This document shows, in pieces, positions 1 through 18,584 of a stretch of 64,000 nt of DNA; within the stretch, counting starts at the first letter, position 1; every line of letters starts with the position of its first letter. The notes under the pieces were generated by a model, which worked only from the letters and a program-made list of their open reading frames with translations, was not told the DNA's origin and did no database searches. Position numbers and translations under genes: made by a program. Origin of the DNA: Acidimicrobiia bacterium (GTDB taxonomy: Bacteria; Actinomycetota; Acidimicrobiia; Spongiisociales; JAENVV01); NCBI GenBank assembly GCA_041577335.1, contig JBFGJH010000006.1:16498-80497 (forward strand), given 5' to 3'.

Positions 1-62
1 TACGGCGTTCCCAAGATGGATATGACAAATGCGATGCCGGCGGCGAGCAGCATGCTGATCAT
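1..62 (-). CDS. mraY: Phospho-N-acetylmuramoyl-pentapeptide transferase, N-terminal fragment (runs off window start)
   Basis: ATG at 62 overlaps the murE stop (ATGA). Translates as MISMLLAAGIAFVISILGTP, a typical actinobacterial MraY N-terminus, in dcw context. Confidence 0.75.
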   Translation of the reverse strand, partial: MISMLLAAGIAFVISILGTP

Positions 63-1492
63 GTGGCAACCTCCGCAACAGCTTCTGACGCAACCTGGTG
101 GTCGTCGAACGGCAGAAGAACACCGCCCACTTCCTGACCCTGTTCGTGGCCTTTGCCGAGGATCAGGACGGTATCGGTGGGTCGAGCCGATCCGACTGCG
201 CCACGAATCGCCGACCCTCGGTCAGGCTCCACGTGCAGTGTCGACGAGTCGGGGAGGCCGGCCAGGATCTGGCTGATGATCTCGTTGGGGTCCTCCGAAC
301 GCGGATTGTCGGAAGTCACCCACACGACATCGGCTGCCGACGAAGCCGCGCCCATCAGCGGGCGTTTGGACTCGTCGCGGTCTCCTCCGGCACCGACCAC
401 GACGATCACTCTGCCTTGCGTGAATCGGCGGGCGGCGCTGATCGCCACTTCGACCCCTTCGGGCGTATGTGCGTAGTCGACATATATGTCGAACGGTCCG
501 GTCCACTCAACGCGTTCCATTCGGCCAGGGACCGTCGAGAGCGCGGTGAGCCCGGCGGCGATGATGTCGACGGAATAGCCCAGCTGGACGGCGCATCCGG
601 CCGCCACCAAGGCATTGCTGATATTGAAATCGCCGGCGACCGGCAGATCTACCGCAGCGTCCCCGTGCGGCGTGGCCAGCGTGAACCGACTCGCCCGCTT
701 GGTCTCGACAACATCGCGGGCAGTGATCTGCCCTCCGGGACCGACGAGCAGGGCATCGGGGTGGCGTGCGGCAAGGCGATCACCCCATTCACTGCGATAG
801 ATCACCTTGGTGTCGGCGAAGTCGAACAGCCGGGCTTTTGCTTCGAAGTAGGCAGCGAGGTCGGAGTGGAAATCGAGATGATCAACCGAGAGGTTCGTGA
901 AGGCCGCCACCGCGTACCGAATCTCGGCCGCTCTCCCCAGTTCCAAGGCATGTGACGAGACCTCCATCGCCACCACGTCGACACCGTCTTCGACCATCGC
1001 AGCAAGCAGCCTCTGGACATCACTCGCCTCAGGTGTTGTCCGTTGGAGAGCGATGGACCGCCCGTTCGAGCGCGCACCCAGGGTCCCCAACCTGCCGGCC
1101 ACGCCGCCTGCAACGGTCGCGATCGACTCGACCATGAAGGTGACGGTGGTCTTGCCGTTCGTGCCGGTCACGCCGACCACCCGCAGCTTGTGGGATGGAT
1201 GGCCGTGGACTTCAGCAGCCAGTTTGGGGAGGGCAGCACGGGTGTCAGGAACGATCAGTTGAGACGCGGCGAGTTCCTGTGGGCTCTCGACGCATACCGC
1301 GGAAGCGCCTCCGTCGATGGCCTGCTGCACATAGTCATGTCCATCGACCCTGAACCCACGAATTGCCACGAAGAGCGTTTCGGGTGACGAGTCTCGGCTG
1401 TCGTGGATCACGTCGGACACGACGGTGCGCGAATCGCCCGTTACGGTACCTTCGACAAGCCGGCCGAGCGTGGCGAGATCAGTCTTCGGCAT
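59..1492 (-). CDS. murE: UDP-N-acetylmuramoyl-tripeptide synthetase
   Basis: GVTGTNGKTT P-loop, TTPE, MEVSSHAL, FTNLSVDHLDFH, VDYAHTP and DNPR motifs. Start moved to ATG 1492 (MPKTDL), which overlaps the ftsI end. Confidence 0.95.
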   Translation of the reverse strand: MPKTDLATLGRLVEGTVTGDSRTVVSDVIHDSRDSSPETLFVAIRGFRVDGHDYVQQAIDGGASAVCVESPQELAASQLIVPDTRAALPKLAAEVHGHPSHKLRVVGVTGTNGKTTVTFMVESIATVAGGVAGRLGTLGARSNGRSIALQRTTPEASDVQRLLAAMVEDGVDVVAMEVSSHALELGRAAEIRYAVAAFTNLSVDHLDFHSDLAAYFEAKARLFDFADTKVIYRSEWGDRLAARHPDALLVGPGGQITARDVVETKRASRFTLATPHGDAAVDLPVAGDFNISNALVAAGCAVQLGYSVDIIAAGLTALSTVPGRMERVEWTGPFDIYVDYAHTPEGVEVAISAARRFTQGRVIVVVGAGGDRDESKRPLMGAASSAADVVWVTSDNPRSEDPNEIISQILAGLPDSSTLHVEPDRGSAIRGAVGSARPTDTVLILGKGHEQGQEVGGVLLPFDDHQVASEAVAEVAT

Positions 1493-3188
1493 CAGGATCC
1501 ACTCCGAGGTGGTGGAGCGACTTCTCCATGATTTCGGCGAACCCGGGGGCGGCGGCCAAGCCACCGGTGTAGCCGTGGATCGGAGAGTCGACGACCACCG
1601 CGACAATCAGCCTCGGTTCCGAAATAGGCGCCATGCCGATGAAGCTGGCCATGTGGTTCTCCGTGTATTCTCCGTCGACCGCGATGAGGCTCGTCCCGGT
1701 CTTGCCGCCAACGCTGTAGCCGGGCACCGAAGCATTCTGGCCGGTCCCTTCGGAGACCACCGTCTCGAGCAGAAACCGCATCGTGCGTGCGGTGTCGATC
1801 GAGACGACCCTTCGGGTGTCCGGAACCACCGGCCGCTCATCCCCGTCTCCATCCACCGTATCGGCGACCAGATGCGGTTGGACCCATACGCCGTCGTTGG
1901 CGATCGTGGCATAGACGGCTGCCATCTGGAGAGGGGTCGCAGTCACCGAATACCCGATGGCGGCCGAAGCGGTGCAGGAACCGCAACTGGGGTCCACCGA
2001 GACCAACCCTGATGCCTCGGCCGAAAAATCGATGCCGGTCGGCACGCCGAAACCAAACTTCTCGAGGTATTCACGATGGGCGCGATCCCCCAGCTGTTGC
2101 TGAACCATGATCGTTCCCACATTCGACGAGCGTGTGACGATGTCTTTCACCGACATCCGCGTGGTTGGCCGCGAGTCACCGAAATCGGAGAAGGTCCAGT
2201 TGCCGACATTGATCTCGTACGGTACGTCGAACTCGGTGTGCCAGTCGACGGCCCCCGTCTCGAGGGCGGCGGCCACTGTCACCACCTTCTGGGTGGAGCC
2301 CGGCTCGTACGTGTAGCGAACTGCACGATTGTGAAACGCCTCCGGGTCGGCGTCTGCGACGGCTCCGGGGTCGTACGACGGAAGCACTGCCATCGCCAGC
2401 ACCTCACCGTTCGACGGATCCATGACAACGGCCGTACACGCCTTTGCGGCCGTCCGCTCGATGGTGTCGACGCAAGCCTGCTCGGCAATGAACTGGATGC
2501 TGGCGTCGATGGTGGTAACGAGATCGAGGCCCGGCTGGGCAGGCTCGACTTCGATGATGCCTTGCGGTATCAGCCGACCGGAAGGGTCGCGCTCGTACCT
2601 CTGAAAGCCATCCTCACCGGCGAGCTGATCTTGGTAGAAGTACTCGAGGCCTTCTTGGCCCTCACCGTCGACATTCACAAATCCCACGACTTGTGATGCC
2701 AAGGTCTCCGCCGGATACACTCGTTTTGGCTCGCTGATGAAGTAGATCCCTGGCAGCTGCAGCTCCTCGAGGTCGGCCACCTCACTGGGCTCCATCTGGC
2801 GGCGCAGGTAGACGAATTGGCTGTCTCGGGTCAACCGTTCCTTGGCATCTTCGATCTCGAGATCGAGCAACCCCGAGACCAATGCCGAGCTCACCTCGAC
2901 GTCCTCGATTTCGGTGGGATTGGCAACCACGGTGACGCCATCGATCGTCGTTGCCATCTCACGGCCGTTGCGGTCGTAGATGTTGCCCCGGCGGGCCGGC
3001 AGAACGTACTCGCGCTCGCGTTGCGCGAGCGACTTTTCGGCGTGCTCTTGGGCATCGACGACCTGGACACGAAAGAGTTGATATCCGACCGTTGCCCAGG
3101 CCATGAGCATGAGGAGCATGACGATGAGGACTCTCGAGTCTGTGCCTCGCAGACGGCGGGGAGCGCGGGCTTTCCCGCGCCTCTTCAT
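1479..3188 (-). CDS. ftsI: Division transpeptidase FtsI/PBP3 family
   Basis: N-terminal TM helix, RRGNIYDRNG dimerisation motif, EPGSTQK (SxxK), SSN (SxN), GKTG; dcw position. Confidence 0.93.
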   Translation of the reverse strand: MKRRGKARAPRRLRGTDSRVLIVMLLMLMAWATVGYQLFRVQVVDAQEHAEKSLAQREREYVLPARRGNIYDRNGREMATTIDGVTVVANPTEIEDVEVSSALVSGLLDLEIEDAKERLTRDSQFVYLRRQMEPSEVADLEELQLPGIYFISEPKRVYPAETLASQVVGFVNVDGEGQEGLEYFYQDQLAGEDGFQRYERDPSGRLIPQGIIEVEPAQPGLDLVTTIDASIQFIAEQACVDTIERTAAKACTAVVMDPSNGEVLAMAVLPSYDPGAVADADPEAFHNRAVRYTYEPGSTQKVVTVAAALETGAVDWHTEFDVPYEINVGNWTFSDFGDSRPTTRMSVKDIVTRSSNVGTIMVQQQLGDRAHREYLEKFGFGVPTGIDFSAEASGLVSVDPSCGSCTASAAIGYSVTATPLQMAAVYATIANDGVWVQPHLVADTVDGDGDERPVVPDTRRVVSIDTARTMRFLLETVVSEGTGQNASVPGYSVGGKTGTSLIAVDGEYTENHMASFIGMAPISEPRLIVAVVVDSPIHGYTGGLAAAPGFAEIMEKSLHHLGVDPDAED

Positions 3189-3274
3189 CGGATCAGCCGG
3201 ACCTGGGCTGCGGAGCCGGGCGGACTACCGCCTCGAGCACGGCCGCCAGCGCCAGGTCGGGCCTCATCGAACAT
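3185..3274 (-). CDS. Possible 29-aa bridging ORF (MFDEARPGAGGRARGGSPPGSAAQVRLIR)
   Basis: Its ATG overlaps the ftsL stop (TGATG) and its TGA overlaps the ftsI ATG (ATGA). No SD of its own and no recognisable family. Confidence 0.25.
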   Translation of the reverse strand: MFDEARPGAGGRARGGSPPGSAAQVRLIR

Positions 3275-3675
3275 CACGGAGTAGCTCCCAATGCTGCTTT
3301 CAGATCGGCCAGACGCTCGATCCCTTCATCGGATTGGACGATGACGCCTGGCGCCGACAGTGTGTGCCGCTCGCCAGGGAAGACCATTCCGAGTTCCTCG
3401 GCGGCCGGCGCAACGCGGCTCGGGCTCTGGAGACGTGCCACTTCGAGCTGCAGACTTTCCATCCGTGCCAACTCGGTTTCGATAGCTCGCTCTGCGTTTT
3501 GGAGGGCGATTGCTCGCTCGTTGAGGCGAGTCTGTGAATAGATGAGGCCAAAAAACACGCCCCCGACGAGCAAGACCGTCATGAGCCACATTCCGAATCG
3601 CGGCGTGCGCTTCGGGGCGTGGAGAACCCGAAACCGACGAGCTGGCCGCGGGCTGGTGATCGGCTGGGCGGTCAT
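3274..3675 (-). CDS. ftsL: Cell division protein FtsL-like
   Basis: Basic N-terminus, one TM helix, coiled coil ending in ...ARLQSPSRVAPAAEELGM; lies between rsmH and ftsI. Confidence 0.7.
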   Translation of the reverse strand: MTAQPITSPRPARRFRVLHAPKRTPRFGMWLMTVLLVGGVFFGLIYSQTRLNERAIALQNAERAIETELARMESLQLEVARLQSPSRVAPAAEELGMVFPGERHTLSAPGVIVQSDEGIERLADLKAALGATP

Positions 3676-4607
3676 GCAGCCACCTTTTCGGCAGCCCTCA
3701 GCCGAGCGCTACGCGCTCGCGGGTTCCGCTCGATTTCCTCTGGTGTGGGACGGAGGGCCTTGCGGGTCAGCAGCCGCAGCTCGGCCGATCGACCGCATCC
3801 ACACACGGGCAGGTCGGGAGGGCAAACGCAATCGCGGGCACCTTCCACGAACCGGCGCTTCACAATGCGATCTTCGAGCGAGTGATAGGAGATGACGACG
3901 CACCGGCCCCCGAGGCCCAACTTCTCCAGGGCTCCGTTGAGGCCTCGTTCGAGGGATTCCAACTCGTCGTTGGCGGCGATTCGGATTCCTTGGAAGGTGC
4001 GCCGTGCGGGATGGCCTCCGGATTGGCGGGCGGCTGCGGGGATGGCGTTGCGGACGACTTCGGCGAGCGCAGCGGTGTTGTCGAGCGGTCGAGCCGCCAC
4101 GATCGCCCGGGCAATGCGACGCGCAAAGCGTTCTTCTCCGAACTTTCGAATCGCCGCAGCCAGGTCGGCTTCCGGCCATTCGTTCACGATCTCGGCGGCG
4201 GTGTGGGGCGCATCTGGCCCCATCCGCATGTCGAGAGGGCCCGACCGTTGATAGGAAAACCCCCGCTCAGCCTCGTCGAGTTGGTGACTCGACACTCCGA
4301 GATCGAACACGGCTCCCGCCAGAGTTTCCACGCCTTCGTCTGAGAGCACCTGGGCAACCTCGCCGAAATCGGCCTCGATGAGCGTGAACCGCTTCGATCC
4401 CCACAGCACGCTGGCGTTGGGGCCAGCCGCAGGGTCGCGATCGATGGCAACGATCCGGGAATCGGGGAGCGCCTCGAGAAGCGCCCTGCTGTGCCCACCG
4501 CCACCAAACGTGGCATCGAGGATCACTCCCCTGGTTTCTGGCTCGAACATCTTCACGACCTCGCTCACCATTACTGGCTCGTGATAGCGGTCATCTTCTT
4601 GGTGCAT
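3672..4607 (-). CDS. rsmH: 16S rRNA m4C1402 methyltransferase
   Basis: HEPVM, DATFGGGGHS, DLGVSSHQLD, RGFSY, LDMRM, ISYHSLEDRIVK, NPRARSARLR. Start taken at ATG 4607, preceded by a G-rich SD. Confidence 0.96.
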   Translation of the reverse strand: MHQEDDRYHEPVMVSEVVKMFEPETRGVILDATFGGGGHSRALLEALPDSRIVAIDRDPAAGPNASVLWGSKRFTLIEADFGEVAQVLSDEGVETLAGAVFDLGVSSHQLDEAERGFSYQRSGPLDMRMGPDAPHTAAEIVNEWPEADLAAAIRKFGEERFARRIARAIVAARPLDNTAALAEVVRNAIPAAARQSGGHPARRTFQGIRIAANDELESLERGLNGALEKLGLGGRCVVISYHSLEDRIVKRRFVEGARDCVCPPDLPVCGCGRSAELRLLTRKALRPTPEEIERNPRARSARLRAAEKVAA

Positions 4608-4690
4608 TGTCAGCCCCCCGGGCGCTGGCACCAAACGGAAGCGGGCGGAGTAAGGGGCCTTCCAATCTGGTATCCGGGGGGCTGACAATG
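4605..4690 (-). promoter_or_regulatory. Long hairpin in the rsmH leader that covers the SD and AUG
   Basis: Perfect 17-bp inverted repeat CATTGTCAGCCCCCCGG (4605-4621) / CCGGGGGGCTGACAATG (4674-4690), with inner pairings ACCAGA/TTTGGT and GGAAG/CTTCC. Confidence 0.7.
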
Positions 4691-4709
4691 AACCCGTCAT
4701 TGCTCGCCA

Positions 4710-5141
4710 TCAAATGCCGTATTCGCTGAGCGCCTCCTCTATTCCTGCGTAGTACTCATCTGCTTCGGTCTGGAGGCGTTCCCACGTCTCGGTATCCCAA
4801 ATCTCGACCCGATCGGCCACGCCGACGATCGTGACGTCTTTCTCGAGCCCGGCATATTCCCGGAGCTTCGTGGCAACTTGCACACGACCTTGTTTGTCCT
4901 GCTCTTGGCTGTCCGCGCTCGCGAAGAAGGATCGGGCAAAGCGGCGGGCACGTTGGTCGGTGCGTGGCAATGACCTCACGCGAGCCTCCTCCTCCGCCCA
5001 CTGGTTGAGGGGGAAGACGTAGAGACACCGCTCTTGGCCCTTGGTGATGACGCAGCCGTCGGCGAGATCCGCACGGAACTTGGAGGGCAGCACGAGTCTG
5101 CCCTTTTGGTCGATCGTGTGGTTGTACTCCCCGAGTAACAC
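4710..5141 (-). CDS. mraZ: Division/cell-wall cluster transcriptional repressor MraZ
   Basis: LGEYNHTIDQKGRLVLP, DKQGRV and GVADRVEIW (two SpoVT/AbrB repeats); GTG start with AAGGA SD. Confidence 0.96.
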   Translation of the reverse strand: MLLGEYNHTIDQKGRLVLPSKFRADLADGCVITKGQERCLYVFPLNQWAEEEARVRSLPRTDQRARRFARSFFASADSQEQDKQGRVQVATKLREYAGLEKDVTIVGVADRVEIWDTETWERLQTEADEYYAGIEEALSEYGI

Positions 5142-5197
5142 GGTGCGTCCTTGTCATGCATTGATTGCGTTCCTGGCGTTGCGGTCGTGAATTCCCT

Positions 5198-5242
5198 CCA
5201 CGGCGCCCCACTTTGCACCACATCGACCCACATGTCAACCAC
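5198..5242 (-). promoter_or_regulatory. dcw promoter with five GTGG MraZ-type direct repeats
   Basis: CCAC (GTGG on the minus strand) starts at 5198, 5208, 5218, 5228 and 5239. The repeats overlap TTGACA (5238-5233), a 17-nt spacer and CAAAGT (5215-5210). Confidence 0.8.
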
Positions 5243-5524
5243 CTTTACCCCTTTTCTGCCGTCCTGCTACTTTTTTCGCGAAGTGGAGCACTGGCCGAAT
5301 GTGCGTTGCGCGAGGCCGCGGCGCGGCTGGTCATGGCCTCCAGAGCCCGGTTTCATGGGCTGGACGACATCCGAGACACCATCGCACCCCCCAAATCACA
5401 AGCACGTAATTACATCTAGCGTATTCAAAACCAACGTTACAAATTGCTCAGGGGGGATGGGATTCGAGTCGATGTTGTGGGACACAGCATCCAGCTGTCG
5501 ACGCAAGGTAGGAGATGCAAGACA

Positions 5525-6793
5525 ATGGTGCGCAAACTCATGCTGCTTGCAGTGGTATCACTCACTGCGTTCGCAGCCATTCCCGTGGCCGCGGCCAAAC
5601 CGGGCCTCCCGGTCAACGCCGTGTTCCAATCCGACAACGATGAGGTCCCCGTTGCTCCCGATGTCGTATCGCTGGATCTCGGCGAACGTTTCGTTGGTGA
5701 CGGCTTCGCACTCGAAGTGCAGCGGGCGTTCATCGTGCCGTCGATCGTTCGGACCGACTATCTCGACGTACGAGTGGCAGTCGCCTTCCAGAATCTTGGA
5801 GACACCCCACTCCCCATGTCACCTATCGCCCTTTCCGGCGAGCCAGGCTATCCGTCGTTGCAGCTCGTCGATGACGAAGGCGTCGTCCAGGAGCTCGACC
5901 GTAGTGATCCATATCGCATGGCGGTTCCAACTTCGAGCCTGACGAACATCCCGCCCGGCCTGCCCGCCCACTGGACACTCGGTTTCGAGGCTTCCAGTGA
6001 GCAGGCGAGCGAGCTGACGGTTCAGGCCGTATCAGACGGATTCGTCGTCGCCGAGTGGGATGTCCTTTCCACGCCTCGACCTCTCACAGGTTGGTCGGCC
6101 CCGGCCGGCGTGACCGAGGCCAGCCGAGGTGACTCCATCGAATGGGACGACGCAGTAACGCTGGAATTCGAGTCGCAGGGGACGTTTGCGTGCGGCCTCG
6201 CCGATCTGGTCTTCAGCGCCACGACCTCATTCGTGTTCTTCGATATCGAGAACAGCGACGTCGTCGAGCGAGCATTCCCGGCGGTCCAGTATCCGGCAGT
6301 TCCCATGATCGCAGTCTGGGAGGACGGCACCACCGCACGGCACGTCGAGTCGGCGGGCTTTGTGGAGCAGCCGACCACCGACATAGTCAACTACAGCAAG
6401 TTCGCCGGTGACCTCACCGACGACGAAAAGGCAATCATCCAAGACGAGGCAATGAACATGCGCCCAGGCCCTGAGTTCAACATGGTGCCGCCGCAGGTCC
6501 AGCGAGCGACCATGGTGTCGTCGTTCCTGGCTGCCAGCGACAGCCGCTTGGCCGACGTCCTCGATACGCCGATTGCGCTCTATCTCACGCCGCCGGAGGG
6601 CAATCCGGTATGGCTCGACTTGAGCAACACGACCAACCGCTTCGACACCAAAGAGGAAGCCGAGAACCCGTCATGCGGATTCGGAACACCGAGCGTCGAG
6701 CTCGGCACCCGGGCCCTCCTGATGCAGCTGCTGGAGTTGCAGGTTCCGCCGGAGGAAGTCGAAGAGACCGATGACTCGCTCAGCGGCAGTTAG
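5525..6793 (+). CDS. Secreted acidic protein, possibly with two DUF4352-like Ig-fold domains
   Basis: SD GGAG. Signal peptide MVRKLMLLAVVSLTAFAAIPVAAA. Pattern VAVAFQN...LQLVDDEG...IPPG...LGF resembles DUF4352 (by eye). Confidence 0.6.
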   Translation: MVRKLMLLAVVSLTAFAAIPVAAAKPGLPVNAVFQSDNDEVPVAPDVVSLDLGERFVGDGFALEVQRAFIVPSIVRTDYLDVRVAVAFQNLGDTPLPMSPIALSGEPGYPSLQLVDDEGVVQELDRSDPYRMAVPTSSLTNIPPGLPAHWTLGFEASSEQASELTVQAVSDGFVVAEWDVLSTPRPLTGWSAPAGVTEASRGDSIEWDDAVTLEFESQGTFACGLADLVFSATTSFVFFDIENSDVVERAFPAVQYPAVPMIAVWEDGTTARHVESAGFVEQPTTDIVNYSKFAGDLTDDEKAIIQDEAMNMRPGPEFNMVPPQVQRATMVSSFLAASDSRLADVLDTPIALYLTPPEGNPVWLDLSNTTNRFDTKEEAENPSCGFGTPSVELGTRALLMQLLELQVPPEEVEETDDSLSGS

Positions 6794-6842
6794 CCGACGG
6801 AAGCGGGCGGATAAGGGTACCGACGAGGGAGTCGCACCACCC

Positions 6843-7346
6843 TCACGCCGATACGGCGAATAGGTACGAATGCCAGAGCGGGTCCACTTGTGGGCCCGCT
6901 CTGGCGTATACCCATCCGTGCCGACTCGGCTGATCAGGCGCCTTGGCCAGTCGGAAGCCCGCCTCATCGGGGAGTCGGTTGCCTTTACGAAGATTGCACC
7001 GCCGACACGCCGCCACGACGTTGTCCCATGTGTGCGGACCGCCTCTCGACCGAGGGATGACGTGATCGATCGACTCAGCCGGCGCCGCGCAGTATTGACA
7101 GCGGTGCCCGTCGCGTGCGAACACGGCGTTGCGAGTGAGCGGCACCGAGCGACCGTAGGGCACTCGGACAAAGCGGTTGAGACGGACCACAGACGGCACC
7201 TCGATCTCCATTCGCTCGGATCGGAACATGGCGTCCTGGGCCTCGAGCAGCGTCGCCTTCTCGTTGAGCACCAATACGGTTGCCCGCCGAGCAGGCACCA
7301 CAGAAAGAGGCTCATACGTCGCATTCAGAACCAGGGCGCGTCGCAC
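6843..7346 (-). CDS. HNH endonuclease (zinc-binding HNH with LVLNATYEPL N-terminus)
   Basis: RDGHRCQYC, DHVIPRSRGG and NVVAACRRCNLRKG motifs; GTG start with GAGGA SD. Confidence 0.9.
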   Translation of the reverse strand: MRRALVLNATYEPLSVVPARRATVLVLNEKATLLEAQDAMFRSERMEIEVPSVVRLNRFVRVPYGRSVPLTRNAVFARDGHRCQYCAAPAESIDHVIPRSRGGPHTWDNVVAACRRCNLRKGNRLPDEAGFRLAKAPDQPSRHGWVYARAGPQVDPLWHSYLFAVSA

Positions 7347-7444
7347 GTTCCATCCTCGTCATGTGATCGACCGCTAACGCCCCGACGATACCACCCTCGA
7401 GAATCCTCCCCGCTCAAATGCGCTTGGGGCCCCGCCTCCATGAC

Positions 7445-7471
7445 GGGGCCTTCCTCCGGTGTGAAGGCCCC
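7445..7471. other. GC-rich 9-bp hairpin in the HNH/recombinase spacer
   Basis: GGGGCCTTC-N9-GAAGGCCCC with no U-tract. Confidence 0.5.
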
Positions 7472-7870
7472 TGTTCGGACGCCCAAATGTGCCGTGAGGT
7501 GCAGGTTCGCGTGGTCATGGGTTGAGCCAATCGGTTACCTGGCAGGCTGTGTCGGCGCAGCCTGGGTCGCTGCCGCGGGTCAGCTTCATCGAACCTACTT
7601 CGGAGCTCGGGCCCCAGCTCTCGCAGGGAGGGACACGAGGACGAGGTTGGGCAGATCGTTGGAAAGTGGGCTACCCACAGACGCGACTGTTCCACCTGTC
7701 GAGGGTCGATTGTCATCTCCCGAATGCCCACATCTCCAACCACGATTCTGGTTGGGACACTGGGTTCCCTCTGGTCACGGCATGCCGAACAACGCTGTCC
7801 CGGGTAATCAGTGCTGCCGCTCAGTGCTGCACCAGCGCTTCCTTGCGCCGACACCTTCCTCGATGACACA

Positions 7871-8428
7871 ATGCATCGTCCAGAGAGAGGCTTTGCCGTG
7901 CGAGTAGTCGGCTATGTACGTGAGATGCCGGGCGAAACAGCGAACACGGCATTCATGCAGGTTGAGAGCGTAAGGCGATGGGTCGCCGAAGGCGGATACC
8001 ATCTCGTGGCGATGTGCCAGGACGGCTACGTCCCTGGCGCTGATGGAGCCCGGCCCGGGTTTCGGGCGCTGCACTCGATCGTGGCCGCCGGTCAAGCCGA
8101 ATTGGTGGTGGTCCCCAGCCTCGCCGCGCTGTCAGCCGACAAGATCACCCAAGAGATCCTCCTGTTCGAGCTCCGCAAGAGCGGCGCCGCCATCGCCTCG
8201 ACCGACGACTCAGACCTTCCGGCTCTGGCCGTGCACTCCAAGGATCCCAGCCGCGTCGTCATACGTGACGTGCTTCATCGATCTTCCGTGTACCGGCACC
8301 GTTTCGAGCAAGGATCGCCCAGTGGAAGCGAGACCGACCCAGACGGCCAAGCCGACGTTGTGGTCGAGTTCCTCGATCACCAATCGTTTCAACGGATTCG
8401 CGAGCAGCGGGCAGCCCTAACGGTCTAG
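7871..8428 (+). CDS. Serine-recombinase (resolvase N-terminal fold) homologue lacking catalytic residues
   Basis: VVGYVREM in place of GYxRxS, Q...D..G...RPGF, VVVPSLAALS in place of DRLxR, and DPSRVVIRDVL helix. No DNA-binding domain is evident. Confidence 0.65.
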   Translation: MHRPERGFAVRVVGYVREMPGETANTAFMQVESVRRWVAEGGYHLVAMCQDGYVPGADGARPGFRALHSIVAAGQAELVVVPSLAALSADKITQEILLFELRKSGAAIASTDDSDLPALAVHSKDPSRVVIRDVLHRSSVYRHRFEQGSPSGSETDPDGQADVVVEFLDHQSFQRIREQRAALTV

Positions 8429-9093
8429 GCGAGCGCTGCCCAGATGGCCCGGCCGACCGCCAGAGGCCGCGTGGCTGTAGTCGCTGCCGCACCGAGCCGG
8501 CGATGTTGACCCAGGACAATGACCACAATGACCGATTCCACGTCGCCGATGACCATCCACTCCACGGTCTCAACCAGGGGTCGCGGCCCGACGGCCCCGG
8601 CCATCTCGTAGAGCAGCTCGGCCATCGACTGCCAAATCGCTCCCTCCGAAGCCGGGCTCTCGGTCGAACGTTTCCGTCCCGTTGTGAGTCGCACAGCGAT
8701 GCGAACGCCTCGATCGTTCTCCGACACGGCTACGGTGCCGATTGCCGGCCGGGCCGGAACCGGCCTCACCGGTCGAAGATCCTTCCCCGTTGCCGCAGCC
8801 CGAGGAATCGGGGGCGACTCCTGGGAACTGATCACCTCACGATCCGACGCAACGGCTGATGGTGCAGCAGGCCGCACCGGATCCGCCGCAAAGTCGGCAT
8901 TGAGACCTCTGCTTCGGAGGATCCGAGCGATGGCTTCGACGAGCGATTCCCGATTCGACCCTGGGGCGATCTCGAGCTGTATACCGACCGGGCCCGAGTC
9001 ACCGATCGAAACCAGGGCATCGGTCACTCCGGCCACGGCGAGAAGCTCGTCCTCGAGGGTCATCGACGCAGGCCTCTCTGACGCTTTCGCCAT
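8425..9093 (-). CDS. Hypothetical two-domain protein with Pro/Ala linker
   Basis: Plausible composition and codon usage; convergent with the recombinase-like gene. Start uncertain (9093 or 9165). Confidence 0.6.
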   Translation of the reverse strand: MAKASERPASMTLEDELLAVAGVTDALVSIGDSGPVGIQLEIAPGSNRESLVEAIARILRSRGLNADFAADPVRPAAPSAVASDREVISSQESPPIPRAAATGKDLRPVRPVPARPAIGTVAVSENDRGVRIAVRLTTGRKRSTESPASEGAIWQSMAELLYEMAGAVGPRPLVETVEWMVIGDVESVIVVIVLGQHRRLGAAATTATRPLAVGRAIWAALA

Positions 9094-9410
9094 CGCAGAA
9101 ACTCGATGAGGTCCGACGCGGGCATCGATGCATCTCCACGGCCGTAGGCGGTCTCCCGCCGCCACGCCATATACCCGGGGTCGGCCAGGAGACTTCGGCC
9201 CCGCGCGGCCGATCGGGACGCCCGAACGGCTTCAACCCACAGGTCGGGGTGGCGGGCCAATGACCCCAGTGACTGCCGTATCACAATTCCCTCCCACCGC
9301 TCTCTGTGGCCGAGTATAAGACCGGAACGGTCGGCCACACGACCCGTCTCCGGCGCGTGTTTTCGCCACCCTGATAACCTGGCAAACATTGTGAGAGAAG
9401 ACCGATAGCC

Positions 9411-10385
9411 ATGGCCGTCGCCGACGGATTGACGAGTGCCGACGAGTTCGCGCGCCAGTTCGACTCGATCGCCGACAACGTCGAGCACGTCATCCAGGGC
9501 AAGCGCTCCGTCATCGATCTCACCATTGCCTGCCTGCTGGCTGAGGGCCACCTCCTCATCGAGGACGTGCCCGGCGTCGGGAAGACGCAGCTGGCCAAGA
9601 GCCTCGCACGAAGCATCGACTGTGTGTTTCAGCGGGTCCAGTTCACGCCCGACCTGCTTCCCAGCGACATCACCGGCGTATCGGTGTGGAACCGGCAGCG
9701 ATCGGAGTTCGAATTCAAGCCCGGCGCCATCTTTGCCAATATCGTCGTGGGCGACGAAATCAATCGCGCCAGCCCCAAGACCCAAGCGGCAATGCTCGAA
9801 GCCATGGCCGAGCGGCAGGTGACTTCCGATGGAGTGACGCGTTCACTCGAGCCGCCCTTCATGGTCGTTGCCACCCAAAACCCGCTCGAGCACGAGGGCA
9901 CGTATCCGCTTCCCGAAGCGCAGCTCGATCGTTTCATGATGCGCCTCGTGATCGGCTATCCGGACCGTGCCAAGTCGCTCGAAATCCTGGACACACACGG
10001 GGCTGCCTCGGTGTACGAAAAGCTCGAGCCGGTGGTCACTGCCGAGACGGTCCGGGCGATGATCGAGATGGCTCGGACCGCCCATGTCGCCGAAGGAATC
10101 AAGGCCTACATCGTTGATCTCGTCGAAGCCACCCGGGAGCATGGCGAGATCCTCCTGGGCGCCTCCCCGAGGTCCGCCTTGTTCATGCAACGTGTCTCCC
10201 GAGTCTGGGCGCTCCACCAAGGCCGCGACTTCGTCACACCCGACGACGTCAAGTCGCTGGCCGAGCCAGTCCTTGCCCACCGGATGGCGCTTCGGCCCGA
10301 AGCGACCATGCGAGGCACGTCAATGCATGAAGTCATCACGTCGATCGTCGGGCAGTTGCCAATTCCAGGCAGGGATCGGCTCTGA
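9411..10385 (+). CDS. MoxR family AAA+ ATPase
   Basis: DVPGVGKT, RVQFTPDLLPSDITG, DEINRASPKTQ, ATQNPLEHEGTYPLPEAQLDRF. Confidence 0.95.
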   Translation: MAVADGLTSADEFARQFDSIADNVEHVIQGKRSVIDLTIACLLAEGHLLIEDVPGVGKTQLAKSLARSIDCVFQRVQFTPDLLPSDITGVSVWNRQRSEFEFKPGAIFANIVVGDEINRASPKTQAAMLEAMAERQVTSDGVTRSLEPPFMVVATQNPLEHEGTYPLPEAQLDRFMMRLVIGYPDRAKSLEILDTHGAASVYEKLEPVVTAETVRAMIEMARTAHVAEGIKAYIVDLVEATREHGEILLGASPRSALFMQRVSRVWALHQGRDFVTPDDVKSLAEPVLAHRMALRPEATMRGTSMHEVITSIVGQLPIPGRDRL

Positions 10386-11566
10386 TGCCGACCGAACGCG
10401 GCTGGATCGCGTTCGGGGTTGCTGCCGCCCTGGCTCTGCTCTGGCTCGGCCTGGGAGAGGTCGAGCTGTTCACGACGGGCCTGCTCCTCTTGGGCGCTCT
10501 GCTCTTCGGCCTGGTGTTCGTACGGCTCAACAAGCCGACTGTGACGGTCACACGTCAGCTGACGCCGTCGACGGTGCGCGAGGGTGACCTGGCGATGGTG
10601 GAAACCAGAATCGTGACCTCATCCCGAGTTGGGTTGTGGAACCCAACAGTCGAAGACCACGTGGTCGGGCTCGGCTCGGCCACTTTCGTCACCGCCAAAA
10701 TCACCCAGCGCAACCCGGGCGTCGCCTCCTACCAAATCTTGTGCCGACCGCGCGGTCGGTTCGAGGTCGGGCCGGCCAGGGTCTGGACCACGGACCCGCT
10801 CCGCCTCGTGCGGCTGGGAGGCGCGGTCGGCGATCAGGATGTCCTCGTCGTCTATCCATCCATCGAGCCGCTGTCGGGGTTTCCGACTTCCCAGGGACGC
10901 GATCCGTCCACGCAGGCGTCTCGCCCCGAATTCAGCCAAAGCGGCGGCGAGGATTTCTTCACGATTCGCGAGTACGAGACCGGTGATGACCTGCGCCGGG
11001 TTCACTGGCCGAGCTCGGCCAAGCGGGACCGGCTCATGATCCGTCAACTCGAGACGCCATGGCAATCGAGGGCCCTCGTCATGTTGGACACCCGCAATAC
11101 CTCCTATCCCAACTCGGCGCTCTTCGAACAAGCCGTGCGAGGCGCTGCCTCGGTCATCCACCATCTGCACCACCGCGGTTTCGATGCCGAGCTCTGGATA
11201 GGAGATCGGCCGCTGCAGAGGAAAGCCAACCACTACATCGCCGCCATGGAGATGCTGGCGGATGTGGACCTGGTCAAACGTTTCGACCTGGCGGAAGCGG
11301 CCGGCCGGATTCAGAGAGCCGGGCGGGGTGGGGCGCTCATTTTCGTGGGGGGCGAGCCCGACTCCGGCCTCTTGGCCGCCCACCGGGTGCTCTCCGCCTC
11401 ATACCGGACCGCCATCCTCATGTCGGCCACCGACACCAAGAACGACATCGACGCCATGTTCCGGCAAGCCGGCGTCACGATCATCCGTGCAGGCACCAAC
11501 GAGAAATGGGCGCCTGTATGGCTCGCTTCAGTGGACAAACCATGGTCCTCCGTCTCAGCTTCCTGA
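10385..11566 (+). CDS. DUF58 domain protein (MoxR partner)
   Basis: N-terminal TMs, IREYETGDDLRRVHWPSSAK motif; coupled to MoxR by TGATG. Confidence 0.9.
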   Translation: MPTERGWIAFGVAAALALLWLGLGEVELFTTGLLLLGALLFGLVFVRLNKPTVTVTRQLTPSTVREGDLAMVETRIVTSSRVGLWNPTVEDHVVGLGSATFVTAKITQRNPGVASYQILCRPRGRFEVGPARVWTTDPLRLVRLGGAVGDQDVLVVYPSIEPLSGFPTSQGRDPSTQASRPEFSQSGGEDFFTIREYETGDDLRRVHWPSSAKRDRLMIRQLETPWQSRALVMLDTRNTSYPNSALFEQAVRGAASVIHHLHHRGFDAELWIGDRPLQRKANHYIAAMEMLADVDLVKRFDLAEAAGRIQRAGRGGALIFVGGEPDSGLLAAHRVLSASYRTAILMSATDTKNDIDAMFRQAGVTIIRAGTNEKWAPVWLASVDKPWSSVSAS

Positions 11567-13944
11567 TCGCCCTCGTTGCGGCGGCACTACCGATCGTCCG
11601 TCTGAGTCGTCTCATCCGCACCGAGGACACGTCCGCGTGGCTGTTCATCATCGCCGGCGCATTCCTGCTCGGAATGCTGGCCACGTGGGCGGTCTGGGCA
11701 TACCGCCGATCCGTGCTCTTGGTGGCCGGCGTCAACGTGGCGGCCGTCGGATTGATCATCGTCACGTACCTTGCTCCCGACACGACTTGGGGCATCCTCC
11801 CCACCACAGCGACCGGCCCGGTGGTGGCGGAGGAGTTGAGTTTCGCTCTCGAGTTGCTGCGGTTCGGCACCGCTCCGGTCATTCCCGTCGCCGGGCTGGT
11901 GGCGGCGCTCGGAGCCATCTTCTGGCTGTTCGGGGCGGTTGCCGCATGGGCCGTCGAGACCTCCCGTCCGTTGGCAGCCATAGGCGGGCCGGCGGTCCTC
12001 TACCTGCAGCTCGCTACGATCGACCGCACTCCCTCGGGACCAGGCTGGATCGCCGCTTTCCTTGCCGTCGTCGGGGCGGCCTTGTTGATCTCGGTGATCG
12101 AAGATCGCCGGCGCGCCACGGGCCGCTTGCACACGGTCTCGGGGACGATGCTCAAGCGGACCGCATTGGCCCGCTCGCTTGCGTACCTGTCCGTGCTCGT
12201 CGTGGGTGCCACCGTGGCCGGCCTCATGGTGTCGGCGGTCGTTCCGTCGGTTGGCCTGCTCAACTGGCGAGCTCGCTCCGGTATCGGAACGGGCATCTAT
12301 GGCGGGGTCTCCTACAACCTCTTCGTGTCGACTGTTCAGACAGATCTCATCTCGCTCGGGGACGAGCCCGTCTTCGTGGCAAGGACATCGGAGCCCGCAA
12401 CGGCCCGGCGAATGTTCTGGCGCCTCATCACCCTCGAGCGGTACGACGGTTCGCACTGGTACCCGGGGCTGTTGAGTTCCGGCGACCCAAACCGAACGAC
12501 GCAATGGGAACGCGGCGACCACAAATATCAGGGTCTCACCCGTACTGTCGATCAGCGAGTCCAAATCCGGAGCCTGCGGCAGAACTACGTGCCCCACGTG
12601 TACTCGCCCATCGACCTGGAATCCGACAACCGTGTGCTGGCAGACAGCCTTCGGGTGCGCGAGGACGGTGCGATCAAGTTCGATGCGCTCACCTGGGAAG
12701 GGCTCGACTACACGATCCGATCCGTGGTCCCCGACGACCCCGTGTCGGAACTGGCCTCCGTGGACGGCGCCTTCTCGCCGATGTTCGCCGCCGCTGCTGC
12801 CGATGGTCGCTTCGGCGGGTCGCCGAGTGCAGCGCGCCGTCCCCTCTCGCCACCTCAGAACATCGCTGTGTTCGAGGAGCTGCCCGAAGAGCTCGATCCG
12901 CGGATCGTCGAAAAAGCGCTGGATCTCACCGAGCTGGGTGTGACCGACTACGAGAAGGCCCTTCTGCTCGAGTCGTTCTATCGCAGCCCACAGGAGTTCC
13001 TCTACTCGGTCGATATCGATCCGGGTCATTCCGCAACTGACTTGGCCAGCTGGCTCTTCGACCCGGAGTCGCCGAACTTCCGAACCGGTTACTGCGAACA
13101 GTTCGCGACCGGAATGGCGGTGATGGCCCGTGCGGTTGGCCTGCCTTCTCGGGTTGTCCTGGGCTTTACGCCCGGCGAGATCTCAGACGACAACCTGATT
13201 ACCGTTCGCCAGAAGAACGCCCATGCCTGGGTGGAGCTCTGGATCGACGACCACGGTTGGGTTCAGTTCGATCCGACCCCTCGCAGCGATGGCGTCAATC
13301 CCTCGACCTCTTCGGCATTGGCGTTTGTGCCGGCCGATTACGCGATCCCGCTGGAGGACGAGTTGGCTGAAGCCGACTCCCCCGGTGCCGCGCAGGGATC
13401 GCCGTTCGACGACGAAATCCGGATTCCCGAGCTCCTCGCCGAGCGGGAGGCGCTCCTGAACGCGCAGGCAGCCGCGGCGGCGGCCGATAACTCGTTCTTC
13501 AACAACCTCAGCCTGCCGGACTGGTGGTGGCGAATCCCGGCCAGCTCGGTAATTCTCGTCCTCGTCCCTCTGGTCAAGGTCCTCCGGCGCCGGTGGCGTA
13601 TGCGACGGCTGCTCAAGGGCGATGTGACCGCAGCGTGGAACGAGGTCACCGACCAACTGCGCGACGCCGGAATGTGGCGGGCCTCGGACGTCTCCACCCC
13701 GGCCGAGGTCGCCGAGTCCTCATTCGACTCGCTCGACCCGCTGGCTCGCCACTACGCAACTCACCTATGGAGCTCGTCAGGACGGGTGACCGCCACCATG
13801 ATTCGGGAAAGCGTCAACGCTCTCGAATCGACAGAGGCCACCATCAGAGACTCAAGCTCGATGCTCCGCCGGGTTGGCCGGGTGTGGAACCCGCGCTCGG
13901 TGGTTCGCCAGATCGTCTCATCGGTCAAGTCGACGCGGCGCTAA
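11542..13944 (+). CDS. Multi-TM transglutaminase-like protein (TgpA/DUF3488 type)
   Basis: About 8 N-terminal TMs. Catalytic GYCEQFA, NAHAWVE and FDPTP. Start reassigned to ATG 11542. Confidence 0.9.
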   Translation: MVLRLSFLIALVAAALPIVRLSRLIRTEDTSAWLFIIAGAFLLGMLATWAVWAYRRSVLLVAGVNVAAVGLIIVTYLAPDTTWGILPTTATGPVVAEELSFALELLRFGTAPVIPVAGLVAALGAIFWLFGAVAAWAVETSRPLAAIGGPAVLYLQLATIDRTPSGPGWIAAFLAVVGAALLISVIEDRRRATGRLHTVSGTMLKRTALARSLAYLSVLVVGATVAGLMVSAVVPSVGLLNWRARSGIGTGIYGGVSYNLFVSTVQTDLISLGDEPVFVARTSEPATARRMFWRLITLERYDGSHWYPGLLSSGDPNRTTQWERGDHKYQGLTRTVDQRVQIRSLRQNYVPHVYSPIDLESDNRVLADSLRVREDGAIKFDALTWEGLDYTIRSVVPDDPVSELASVDGAFSPMFAAAAADGRFGGSPSAARRPLSPPQNIAVFEELPEELDPRIVEKALDLTELGVTDYEKALLLESFYRSPQEFLYSVDIDPGHSATDLASWLFDPESPNFRTGYCEQFATGMAVMARAVGLPSRVVLGFTPGEISDDNLITVRQKNAHAWVELWIDDHGWVQFDPTPRSDGVNPSTSSALAFVPADYAIPLEDELAEADSPGAAQGSPFDDEIRIPELLAEREALLNAQAAAAAADNSFFNNLSLPDWWWRIPASSVILVLVPLVKVLRRRWRMRRLLKGDVTAAWNEVTDQLRDAGMWRASDVSTPAEVAESSFDSLDPLARHYATHLWSSSGRVTATMIRESVNALESTEATIRDSSSMLRRVGRVWNPRSVVRQIVSSVKSTRR

Positions 13945-13957
13945 CACCCCGAAACCC

Positions 13958-14440
13958 TCAACCGCTGGCGACGTCTTCCTCAACTCGCCGCAGCACGTCG
14001 AGGAACTGATCTCGGTCGAGCTCGAACCGGGTGACGTCTTCTTGAACCTCGCGGGTGATTGAGTCGATGGCCACGAAGAAGGCCAATTGCCCTTCCTTCA
14101 GTGCATCGAGCAGCTGGGCCTGATTCGAAGTCACGTGAAAAATCGACGTGCCGTCGGTGACGAGTTGAACGTCGGCGAGGTGAGTGTCCATGTCGGCGTT
14201 GCGCCGGAGGTAGTCCCAGGCGCGTCGGACGCGCTGGACCGACATCCCGTTGTCGAGGAGAGAACGAACGACCCGCAACGCGACGAGGTCACGGAAGTTG
14301 TACATGCGCCGCACTCCTGGACGACCGCCGGTGCTTTGAATGGAAGGTCTCACGAGATCTACCCGATCCCAATAGCGCAACTGGTGTTGGGTGCACCCCG
14401 TCAGCTTGGACGCTTGTTGCGCCGTGAAGCCCTCCTGCAA
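13958..14440 (-). CDS. MerR family transcriptional regulator
   Basis: GFTAQQASKLTGCTQHQLRYWDRVDLVRPS...RMYNFRDL HTH. Likely TTG start at 14440 after GGAGG. Confidence 0.85.
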   Translation of the reverse strand: MQEGFTAQQASKLTGCTQHQLRYWDRVDLVRPSIQSTGGRPGVRRMYNFRDLVALRVVRSLLDNGMSVQRVRRAWDYLRRNADMDTHLADVQLVTDGTSIFHVTSNQAQLLDALKEGQLAFFVAIDSITREVQEDVTRFELDRDQFLDVLRRVEEDVASG

Positions 14441-14601
14441 GTCCGTCTCCTCCAACCTCAAGACGGCCGAAGTCTGGGGCCGTCCTACCTCCAATTAGCG
14501 CGGCGGAACACTTCCGCCGCTGCTGCGCCGTCGCGTCTCCAGCGACGCCGGCATCCAGCCTTCCCCCACCCTCTGGGGTCCGGTACCTTAGTCGATCGAA
14601 A

Positions 14602-14943
14602 TCAACCCGGACGCCGGAAACGCCGGGCTCTCCCTTCCGGATCGTCTTCGTTGGCCCCGTTGACCAGTCGAAGGCGACCGGAACGGCCCCGTACCTCGCG
14701 CATGAAGAAGAAGGCCGACACGACGAGGAACACGAAGCCTGCGAGAGCTATCCACACGTTCCACAGGTAGGTCGCCACCATTGCGATGGACAAGATCACT
14801 CCGAGAGCCAAGACACGCTGCCGCCACGGCGACGTTACCTTCTTGGTGATGTTGCGTACGGCATCGGCGAGATCGGGGTCCTCTTCATAGAACCGCCGCT
14901 CGATCTCTGCGAGAATGCGCTGCTCTCGGTCGTCCAAACCCAT
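14602..14943 (-). CDS. DUF3040 domain membrane protein
   Basis: MGLDDREQRILAEIERRFYEEDPDLA followed by two TMs; a family typical of actinobacterial mraZ neighbourhoods. Confidence 0.85.
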   Translation of the reverse strand: MGLDDREQRILAEIERRFYEEDPDLADAVRNITKKVTSPWRQRVLALGVILSIAMVATYLWNVWIALAGFVFLVVSAFFFMREVRGRSGRLRLVNGANEDDPEGRARRFRRPG

Positions 14944-15043
14944 CTGTCGCGACTCCCTCAGCGTTGGCTTCAGCGACTCATCTCAGTATACGCAGGCTCC
15001 CTGCGCAACCGGCATAGCGAATCTCGGCTTTTTTTTGCAACCC

Positions 15044-16213
15044 TCATTCGTCACCATCAGTATGCAAAACGGCCGGCCCCACCGCACCTTCGCCGTACTT
15101 GAGGCGCACGGTTTCGACGGCATCTTCGAGATCGTCCCATTTGGCAGGCCGATCGGTGGCGAGCTGGCGCGGGGCATCGCGCGGCTCGAGATGGGAAACG
15201 CCGATGCCCAGGAGCCGCACACCTTCGCTGCGACGCGGCATTCGCTCGAGAAGCTGCAACGCCGCCCGATGCAGGTCACGGGTCACGTCGGTGGCAGACG
15301 CCAGCGTGAGCGTACGGACGGGCGTGTCGAAGTCCCGAAAACGGAGCTTCAGGGTGATTGTGCGACCTGCGACGCCTGCTTGACGAAGTCGAGAGGCAAC
15401 TCGCGTGGCATGCCGCAACACCTCGGTGCGGATCAGCGCTGCGTCGTGAAGGTCGGCGCCGTAGGTCTGTTCGGCGGAGATGGATTTGGCTTCCGAAGTG
15501 GCGATCACCGGTCGGGGATCTTCGCCGCGGGAGAGCGCGGCGAGATGGGCGCCGGCGCTTGCGCCGAGCAGGCGCTGGAGCATCGCGACGTCCAAGTCGG
15601 CGAGTTCGCCGACGGTTTGCACACCAACCCGCTCGAGGGCGGCATGGGCTGCCTCGCCTACACCCCACAACGCGCGAACACTCAACGCGTGCAGGAATTC
15701 GAGCTGGCTCTCGACCGGCACATGGAGCATCCCATCGGGCTTGGCGCGCGTGGACGCCAGCTTCGCCATGAATTTGGTGGCGGCCACCCCTGCGGACGAA
15801 GGAATTCCCACCTCGGCGCCGACTCGCTCCCGGACAGCCTGAGCGATCTGAACGGAGCTTTGGTAATGGCGGGTGAGGCCCGAGACGTCGAGAAACGCCT
15901 CGTCGACCGACAGCCCTTCGACCAATGGCGTGAACGATCGCAGGATGGCAAACACCGAGGCGCTGACCGATCGGTAGTACCCATGATCGGTGGGGACCAC
16001 GACCAGCGCCGGGCACATGCGCCTGGCTTGGGCCATCGGTTGGGCAGAATGCACCCCCGCCCGCCGCGCCTCATACGAGGCAGAGGCCACGACGCCCCGA
16101 TTGCCGCCACCGCCGACAACCACCGGTTTGCCGCCAAGCGAAGGATCACGCAGTCGCTCGCACTCGACGAAGAACGAGTCCATATCGACATGAATGATGG
16201 GCTCTGTGAACAC
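15044..16213 (-). CDS. dinB: DNA polymerase IV
   Basis: IIHVDMDSFF, VVASASYEARR, LSVDEAFLD, KLASTRAKPDG, little-finger domain. Confidence 0.95.
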   Translation of the reverse strand: MFTEPIIHVDMDSFFVECERLRDPSLGGKPVVVGGGGNRGVVASASYEARRAGVHSAQPMAQARRMCPALVVVPTDHGYYRSVSASVFAILRSFTPLVEGLSVDEAFLDVSGLTRHYQSSVQIAQAVRERVGAEVGIPSSAGVAATKFMAKLASTRAKPDGMLHVPVESQLEFLHALSVRALWGVGEAAHAALERVGVQTVGELADLDVAMLQRLLGASAGAHLAALSRGEDPRPVIATSEAKSISAEQTYGADLHDAALIRTEVLRHATRVASRLRQAGVAGRTITLKLRFRDFDTPVRTLTLASATDVTRDLHRAALQLLERMPRRSEGVRLLGIGVSHLEPRDAPRQLATDRPAKWDDLEDAVETVRLKYGEGAVGPAVLHTDGDE

Positions 16214-16352
16214 GCAAAAACCGTAGCGGGGCGGCGCTCATCGCGTCTCTCATTCTGTCTCATTGCGCGCAGGCGAGGATTGCATGGCTTCGTCGCGCCT
16301 GTGGCGACCAACGGGATCCTGCGACTCGATCGAGGTCCTAACATCATCGCTT

Positions 16353-16973
16353 ATGGCCAACTACGTACATCTGGTCCGACACGGAGAGGTCGACAACCCC
16401 GAGCACGTCGTGTACGGCCGGATGCCAGGTTTTGGGCTCACCGACCGAGGCAGGCGCCAGGCGGCTGACGCGGGAAGGTACCTTCGGCGGAGGCCGATCG
16501 TGGCGGTATGGTCGAGCCCCCTGAGACGAGCAGTCGCGACTGCCGACGCGATAGCTCAGCCCCATGGCCTGCCCGTTCATGTGGACGATGAACTCACCGA
16601 GTGGAAGCTGGCCGACCGATGGCAAGGCATCGTGTGGGAAGACCTGCCGGAGCGCTTTCCCGGAGAACTGGAGACGTATCTGGAATCCCCGTGGGACTTG
16701 CCGTTTGCTCCCGAATCTCTCGAGGCATGCGCCGACCGCATGGCCAAAGCCGTGGTGCGAGCTTGCGAAGACCATCGCACCGGCGACGTCGTCGTCGTTT
16801 CGCACCAGGATCCTGTCCAGGCCGTACGGCTCCTGCTGACCGGGAGAACCCTCCGCGAACAGCACGACCACAAGCCCGAGCACGCCACCGTCATCACGTT
16901 GGAGAAAGACTCAGCTTGGCGCGAGGTCAGCCGTTATGACCCTGACGAGCAGGAGCCCTTCCCGCCCCGCTAG
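16353..16973 (+). CDS. Histidine phosphatase (phosphoglycerate mutase-like) family
   Basis: LVRHGEV, WSSPLRRAVATA, LTE and VVSHQDP motifs. Confidence 0.88.
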   Translation: MANYVHLVRHGEVDNPEHVVYGRMPGFGLTDRGRRQAADAGRYLRRRPIVAVWSSPLRRAVATADAIAQPHGLPVHVDDELTEWKLADRWQGIVWEDLPERFPGELETYLESPWDLPFAPESLEACADRMAKAVVRACEDHRTGDVVVVSHQDPVQAVRLLLTGRTLREQHDHKPEHATVITLEKDSAWREVSRYDPDEQEPFPPR

Positions 16974-17482: not shown

Positions 17483-17562
17483 CCCGGGATCTTAGAAGGC
17501 CCGCGACTCCGCGGTTCTGGCCTGGTGATCATGAGCGAGGCCGTTGCCGCGATAATGGAAGT

Positions 17563-18581: not shown

Positions 18582-18584
18582 TCT

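Follow-up and report, generated by a model that had tools for sequence, protein, structure and literature searches.

The window, a stretch of 64,000 nucleotides from the genome of an Acidimicrobiia bacterium, carries a complete gene for a 167-residue protein in which an HNH nuclease domain is preceded by an N-terminus that, judging from structure models and profile comparison, belongs with the PLMP domains of IsrB and of IscB, a transposon protein ancestral to Cas9. An HNH reading frame at 6843-7346 was the starting point of the original prediction, which had been made from the sequence by eye, and it is borne out at exactly these coordinates, on the minus strand. Orthologues of this PLMP-HNH protein have the same length and the same start as the window gene, whose translation opens with MRRALVLNATYEPLSVVPARRATVLVLNEKA. 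The features at the locus are the following.

6843..7346, minus strand: complete gene for the 167-aa PLMP-HNH protein, with a GTG start at 7346 and the stop codon at 6843-6845 (ORF list).
7161..7346, minus strand: N-terminal domain of predicted PLMP fold, residues ~1-62, beta1-beta2-helix-beta3-beta4 (AF2, VIA-align, Foldseek, hhalign).
6927..7148, minus strand: HNH (beta-beta-alpha-Me) nuclease domain, residues ~67-140 (Pfam, NCBIfam, phmmer, structure).
6846..6926, minus strand: C-terminal tail, residues 141-167, with two predicted helices and W158 (AF2 secondary structure, alignment).
7353..7357, minus strand: putative Shine-Dalgarno sequence GAGGA, 6 nt 5' of the GTG start (inferred, read from the sequence).
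7347..7810: spacer of 464 nt upstream of the HNH gene, single-copy in the genome.
5444..6793, plus strand: gene for a secreted protein of 449 aa.
7811..8428, plus strand: resolvase-like ORF of 205 aa.
8425..9165, minus strand: ORF of 246 aa.

The AF2 model of the whole protein, with a mean pLDDT of 90.9, accounts for the full 167-aa chain as a PLMP domain, an HNH domain and a tail of 27 residues. The tail is predicted to form helices at H142-150 and H156-163; in a 46-member family alignment its W158 is invariant, and P137 and P140 are nearly so. It is a property of the chromosomal subfamily only, and the plasmid and phage paralogues described below align just to about residue 140. A Pfam search of the 167-aa protein matched HNH families only, with no match to RuvC or any other domain, and thus upholds the initial description of a CxxC-HNH joined straight to the N-terminus with no RuvC in between.

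The HNH domain was recognized by Pfam at residues 83-131, where PF01844 (54.8 bits against a gathering cut-off of 21.4) and PF14279 (54.6 bits against 27.5) both matched with E 1e-14. Among NCBIfam models the best match was to the HNH segment of the IscB model (48.3 bits), followed by Cas9d and Cas9; the IscB model as such, NF040563, is not satisfied, its cut-off being 175 bits and the match being confined to model positions 183-238, with no split RuvC. The top ranks of a phmmer search against PDB sequences were TbaIscB (2e-9), YnpsCas9 (5e-8) and the Geobacter Gme HNH nickase (3e-7), and structural comparison matched the domain to those of small Cas9 and Cas9d proteins at Z 9.8-8.5. The nearest named relatives of the domain are the HNH domains of IscB and Cas9. 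From the alignment, C83, C86, C114 and C117 are predicted to be zinc ligands and D94-H95, N109 and N118 to be catalytic; all of these residues, together with K121, are invariant in the 46 family members, and since the catalytic and zinc-binding positions are thus conserved, the domain looks catalytically competent. The spacing of the motif in the family alignment, H-14-N-9-N, agrees with that of the Cas9-type HNH motif.

The identity of the N-terminal domain requires more argument. Whether modelled within the whole protein or alone (residues 1-68, pLDDT 89.6), it adopts a beta-beta-helix-beta-beta topology, and in these AF2 models the arrangement equals the published description of the IsrB PLMP domain, four antiparallel strands and one helix that resemble the N-domain of IF3 (PMC9581776). 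In a wide structural search with VIA-align, which is independent of Foldseek and compared the N-domain model with 48,161 representative PDB chains, the top five matches were all PLMP domains of IscB or IsrB, at chain residues 1 to ~57, with Z 7.7, 6.8, 6.3, 5.7 and 5.6; the sixth fell to Z 2.8, and the IF3 N-domain likewise reached only 2.8. Foldseek, given the N-domain model by itself, placed HfmIscB, TbaIscB, DtIsrB and two OgeuIscB entries as its top five PDB matches, with IF3 N-domains next. Because DtIsrB lacks an HNH domain, its match is not due to the nuclease part. When the whole model was searched with VIA-align, residues 2-66 were laid on residues 2-53 of HfmIscB (Z 6.8, rmsd 1.6 A), and a match to residues 1-51 of TbaIscB was also obtained (Z 5.6). 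The IscB and IsrB PLMP structures (PDB 9k2z, 9k30, 8dmb, 7utn/8csz, 9nvu and 9liq) show the same fold as the model, at Z 7.7-5.6 and an rmsd of ~2 A over 52-55 residues, but the beta3-beta4 hairpin is ~13 residues longer in the window protein than in IscB. Moreover, the PLMP domain of IscB and IsrB packs on the RuvC and TAM-interacting domains and touches omega-RNA hairpins, whereas the window protein has neither of these domains.

The second line of evidence is a profile-profile comparison between the N-domain of the 46-sequence family and an IscB N-terminal profile built from eight annotated iscB genes taken from plasmids. With hhalign this gave probabilities of 89-93% and P 2e-6 to 4e-7 (the probability was 76% when the family profile was thin), and the best alignment had a probability of 92.8%, P 3.8e-7 and a score of 36.0. 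In it the conserved P (of PL), A (of RA), L and KA of one family pair in register with those of the other, with EPLSV in the window protein where IscB has PLMP. In 200 column shuffles of the IscB alignment the mean score was 9.6 +/- 2.0 and the maximum 18.1, so that none came near the real value, and the PLMP likeness first noticed by eye is above chance. The comparison of the N-terminus with PLMP profiles and by Foldseek, which had been proposed as the check on that likeness, has thus come out in its favour.

It is conceivable that the likeness is one of convergence on a common small alpha/beta fold, in which case the protein would be a generic HNH endonuclease of the homing or McrA-type restriction kind. 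An N-domain HMMER profile found no IscB among PDB sequences, its one match being a chance match at E 1.9, and Pfam RRXRR (PF14239) had no match in the protein or the genome, a silence of little weight in that the control genomes were equally silent. Since both searches are blind to the domain, the case for homology rests on profile-profile and AF2-model structure comparison of a small domain, where a Z below 8 may be due to an arrangement that many proteins share. We nevertheless regard convergence as very unlikely: the five best of all chains searched are PLMP domains matched over the whole domain, with a drop from Z 5.6 to 2.8 behind them; the profile match keeps the invariant P, A, L and KA in register and scores far beyond any of the shuffles; and the HNH domain, taken separately, leads to the same protein family. 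We conclude that the N-terminal ~62 residues are, on the evidence of the models and profiles, a homologue of the IscB/IsrB PLMP domain, and that the domain is likely to be more distantly related to the IF3 N-domain fold.

The gene occurs once in its own genome (100% match), in 29 of 31 relatives and, nearly always as a single copy, in 145 of a phylum-wide sample of 201 genomes (about 72%); those of the 201 without it fall in particular families, many with small genomes. These tallies take in unpublished genomes (G022 in the set of 31 relatives; G117, G201, G077, G047, G175, G111, G031 and G148 in the set of 201), which are excluded from the alignments, models and tree. Named records with the gene include Acidimicrobiia, Nanopelagicales, Frankiaceae, Mycobacteriales, Streptomyces and others, and these counts confirm the remark in the original prediction that short HNH proteins of this sort are common among actinobacteria. 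Tblastn of the window's neighbour proteins against 20 phylum-wide loci recovered the gene order transglutaminase-DUF58-MoxR / HNH / mraZ-rsmH-ftsL, and the MoxR-DUF58-transglutaminase and mraZ-rsmH flanks are retained from the window's family through its order and class to other classes. Among 100 loci surveyed, mraZ was found within the flanks in 32, and in 29 of these it lies downstream on the same strand. In a maximum-likelihood tree the window protein groups with relatives of its genus, then of its family and then of its order, the first two steps being starred, so that the family tree follows genus, family and order taxonomy. The window gene is inherited vertically through Actinomycetota, in a fixed place and as a single copy, and the early caveat that it may be a domesticated relative of mobile genes suits a gene of this kind, which is single-copy, syntenic and vertically inherited.

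Two departures from this pattern were observed. Some large Streptomyces-like genomes hold a shorter second paralogue that covers residues 1-142 (L021, G083:C1:2126335-2126763, and second matches in G053, G068 and G218), and in the tree L021 joins the clade of plasmid and phage copies instead of the chromosomal orthologue. Two metagenome bins labelled 'uncultured Acidobacteriota' (L042 and L047) possess a 64-65% identical copy; L042 sits tightly with the Acidimicrobiia-order genome G076 in the tree, which points to a mislabelled bin or a transfer.

No pathway for the protein is indicated by its conserved neighbours. As a separate observation, at 20 of 100 loci the HNH gene is directly followed, on the same strand, by a gene that overlaps its 3' end and has a weak match to the LplA/LipB catalytic fold (PF21948, 43 bits; L078:3312-4133) (besides L078, these are L018, L019, L050, L054-L060, L065-L067, L069, L076, L082, L086, L088 and L116), and the overlap suggests translational coupling. 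This gene is absent from the window, where the opposite-strand gene for the secreted protein is found instead.

The distribution also bears on the generic-endonuclease reading, which would be favoured by the name 'McrA' that JGI has given to many members and by weak HNH-level matches of PADLOC to PtuB and restriction models. These PADLOC matches touch the HNH core only, however, there is no modification-reading domain, and a core-gene distribution with conserved synteny is unlike that of defence or homing genes. An assignment as a McrA-type or type IV restriction HNH was rejected in view of the PLMP-fold N-domain, the score of 16 bits for PADLOC mREase_IV on the HNH motif, and the core-gene distribution; a defence gene was likewise rejected, the PADLOC matches being weak and limited to the HNH core. 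Among stand-alone small HNH proteins, the Geobacter metallireducens Gme HNH nicking endonuclease (PDB 4h9d) shares the CxxC zinc ligands and 40% identity over 60 aligned residues, but it is a 112-aa chain without a PLMP-like N-terminal domain. In PHROGs, one phage family, phrog_16726, spans both the PLMP and the HNH domains. Longer fused members of the family included no IscB-like fusion, and those found were single gene-call fusions with neighbours, namely an LplA-like gene, prephenate dehydratase, ROK and DUF4446.

The named system that the protein most invites comparison with is IshB, defined in 2021 as a protein of about 180 aa consisting of PLMP and HNH without RuvC (summarised in PMC10734217 and PMC11610941). 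An IshB-like architecture, here PLMP plus HNH without RuvC in 167 aa, is supported, as had been proposed at the outset, the likeness being to the published description of IshB, not to IshB sequences; the HNH domain, moreover, is of IscB/Cas9 type. There are differences as well. The name-giving PLMP motif is degenerate (EPLSV) in the window protein, and its gene is a single-copy, vertically inherited gene in a fixed position, without TnpA, transposon ends or a detectable omega-RNA.

Membership of an IS200/605 OMEGA element, which the original prediction had drawn from the architecture, is not supported. In the source genome, which is 90.75% complete, no Y1 TnpA was found, nor TnpB by a search for its zinc-ribbon domain, nor any IscB that reached the cut-off; the gene has no further copies, and its chromosomal position is fixed across classes. 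In the source organism the PLMP-HNH gene does not belong to a mobile OMEGA element. Three weak matches to the HNH part of the IscB model, at 21-25 bits, were noted elsewhere in the genome (G000:C61:7407-7556, C12:1016-1186 and C27:7379-7546; L139-L141), and they sit in open frames of 409-420 aa, that is, in larger HNH proteins.

The resolvase-like ORF matches the PF00239 resolvase N-terminal catalytic domain (E 6.5e-8), lacks a DNA-binding domain and reads GYVREM at the place where the earlier reader expected the serine nucleophile; its homologues occur only in the window's taxonomic family (L013-L015, L027 and L028). This recombinase-fold neighbour, once offered in support of an RNA-associated system, is a lineage-specific addition and no conserved partner. 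Pfam recognized neither the secreted protein nor the 246-aa ORF, and both are essentially confined to the same family, with one weak order-level match for the 246-aa ORF (L017). The HNH gene, the resolvase-like ORF and the 246-aa ORF were considered as one module, which was rejected on the grounds that the latter two are essentially family-limited. Since these neighbours are limited to the window's family and the HNH gene is deeply syntenic, the 'four-gene accessory islet' of the earlier reading does not hold together: the HNH gene has long occupied the site, and the other genes were added around it. The annotation of the window is thereby corrected, in that the HNH gene is no part of a recently inserted islet.

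The upstream spacer was the other feature said to speak for an RNA partner, and the description of it as structured is not supported by its folding, which on the two strands is no better than that of dinucleotide shuffles (z -0.82 and -0.74). Rfam gave no match at E <= 1 in window positions 5000-10000, a promoter and terminator scan found nothing, and the similarity of the spacer to 31 related loci, the same-genus relative included, was at chance level only by blastn and tblastx. The HNH gene is separated from the next gene upstream by ~247, 133 and 62 nt in three same-family relatives, and by about 62-464 nt overall; with gaps down to ~62-250 nt in relatives, there is no room for a conserved omega-RNA of ~200-300 nt. 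A HEARO search of the genome had no match, the control being silent too; a partner RNA encoded in trans would be conceivable.

These results bear most directly on the idea that the protein is a working OMEGA-type (IshB) RNA-guided nuclease, with its omega-RNA in the 464-nt spacer or elsewhere in the genome. The two-domain architecture and size of published IshB (PMC10734217, PMC11610941), an unusually long non-coding gap at 7347-7810 and an HNH domain nearest to those of IscB and Cas9 would all be in keeping with it. Against it stand a spacer that folds no better than its shuffles, matches nothing in Rfam, is unconserved within the genus and is too short in relatives; a gene and spacer that are single-copy; deep synteny; and a genome in which TnpA, TnpB and IscB were not found. 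Such a system is extremely unlikely here.

The lead that tells most about function comes from the paralogues. Tblastn of plasmids and phages recovered proteins of this two-domain family that are 38-43% identical over residues ~2-140, the N-domain included, in Cyanobacteria, Alphaproteobacteria, Bacteroidota, actinobacterial plasmids and large phages. In five of the 12 plasmid loci (two from Nostoc, and one each from Tolypothrix, Mycobacterium intracellulare and Mycolicibacterium alvei), the gene lies within or directly before same-strand arrays of 20-28 tRNA genes; in a sixth, from Pseudarthrobacter, six tRNAs and a tmRNA are located just upstream. The plasmid hosts concerned thus belong to Nostocales, Mycobacteriales and Micrococcales. 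Two of the four phage loci, from a cyanophage and an Arthrobacter phage, also adjoin tRNA genes. The array-linked paralogue loci are these.

L123:4959-8082; L124:4021-7267; L128:3083-6027; L129:3953-6716; L130:3950-8331; L132:171-4459; L136; L137:3104-3986

The array copies are known in the literature as array-linked HNH homing endonucleases (PMC8421152, PMC5966550, PMC12803027). One of them, all8564 of Anabaena sp. PCC 7120, is induced together with the tRNA operon when translation is under stress (PMC8421152), and HNH genes embedded in tRNA arrays are conserved in mycobacteria (PMC5966550, PMC12803027). All8564 and the mycobacterial array HNH belong to the same PLMP-HNH superfamily as the window protein, but the array-linked copies are found on plasmids and phages and lack the W158 tail, whereas the window copy is chromosomal. 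A starred clade of the tree unites the copies from actinobacterial plasmids and phages, another those of the Nostocales, and the window's clade is distinct from the two. No publication naming both 'IshB' and 'tRNA array' was found in the literature searched.

From these paralogues one could imagine an RNA-linked nuclease, in which the PLMP domain binds a structured cellular RNA (a tRNA or a hairpin resembling one, or an RNA encoded in trans), while the HNH domain cleaves that RNA or nucleic acid bound to it; the enzyme would then serve in translation stress or RNA quality control rather than in DNA metabolism. The PLMP domain of IsrB does contact the terminal omega-RNA hairpins, and its fold is like that of the IF3 N-domain (PMC9581776). 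Paralogues that include the PLMP part lie in or next to tRNA arrays at 6 of 12 plasmid and 2 of 4 phage loci, in Cyanobacteria as well as Actinomycetota, and both the stress response of all8564 (PMC8421152) and the conservation of array-embedded HNH genes in mycobacteria (PMC5966550, PMC12803027) would fit. A homing endonuclease, however, would also adjoin tRNA arrays, the array copies are without the C-terminal tail and most fall in clades of their own, no tRNA gene was found in window positions 1-20000, and the conserved neighbours of the window gene are MoxR and mraZ, not RNA genes. We consider such a role unlikely for the window protein; the RNA or tRNA reading is a lead for the PLMP-HNH family and no finding for this locus.

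The best explanation, and one that we hold to be probable, is that the gene encodes a vertically inherited, non-mobile, stand-alone nuclease of IshB architecture that finds its substrate through protein contacts. The protein would be a two-domain nuclease, in which a PLMP-fold domain is fused to an intact, zinc-bound HNH domain of IscB/Cas9 type and a short helical tail, and its gene has a fixed place, with the divergent MoxR-DUF58-transglutaminase operon on its upstream side and mraZ-rsmH on its downstream side. Going by its sequence, it may be a metal-dependent enzyme that nicks or cuts. The substrate would be reached via protein-nucleic acid contacts, with the PLMP domain as a binding or positioning module, and presumably without the use of a guide RNA encoded beside the gene. 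Candidate substrates could include a DNA lesion or structure, an RNA-DNA hybrid, or a structured RNA such as tRNA.

It is tempting to go further and to suggest that PLMP-HNH proteins are ancient cellular nucleases for structured RNA or tRNA, that the chromosomal form is a housekeeping gene and the array copies its mobile offshoots, and that IscB took its PLMP and HNH modules from this source. We put this forward as a speculation, and a decidedly doubtful one; if it were true, the locus would be a tractable, non-mobile model of the role that PLMP played before RNA guidance.

Of all branches of the IscB/IsrB/Cas9 lineage, IshB is understood the least. The locus demonstrates that a protein of IshB type can be encoded by a stable core gene in single copy, without a transposon or a neighbouring RNA. 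[quoted passage not shown]
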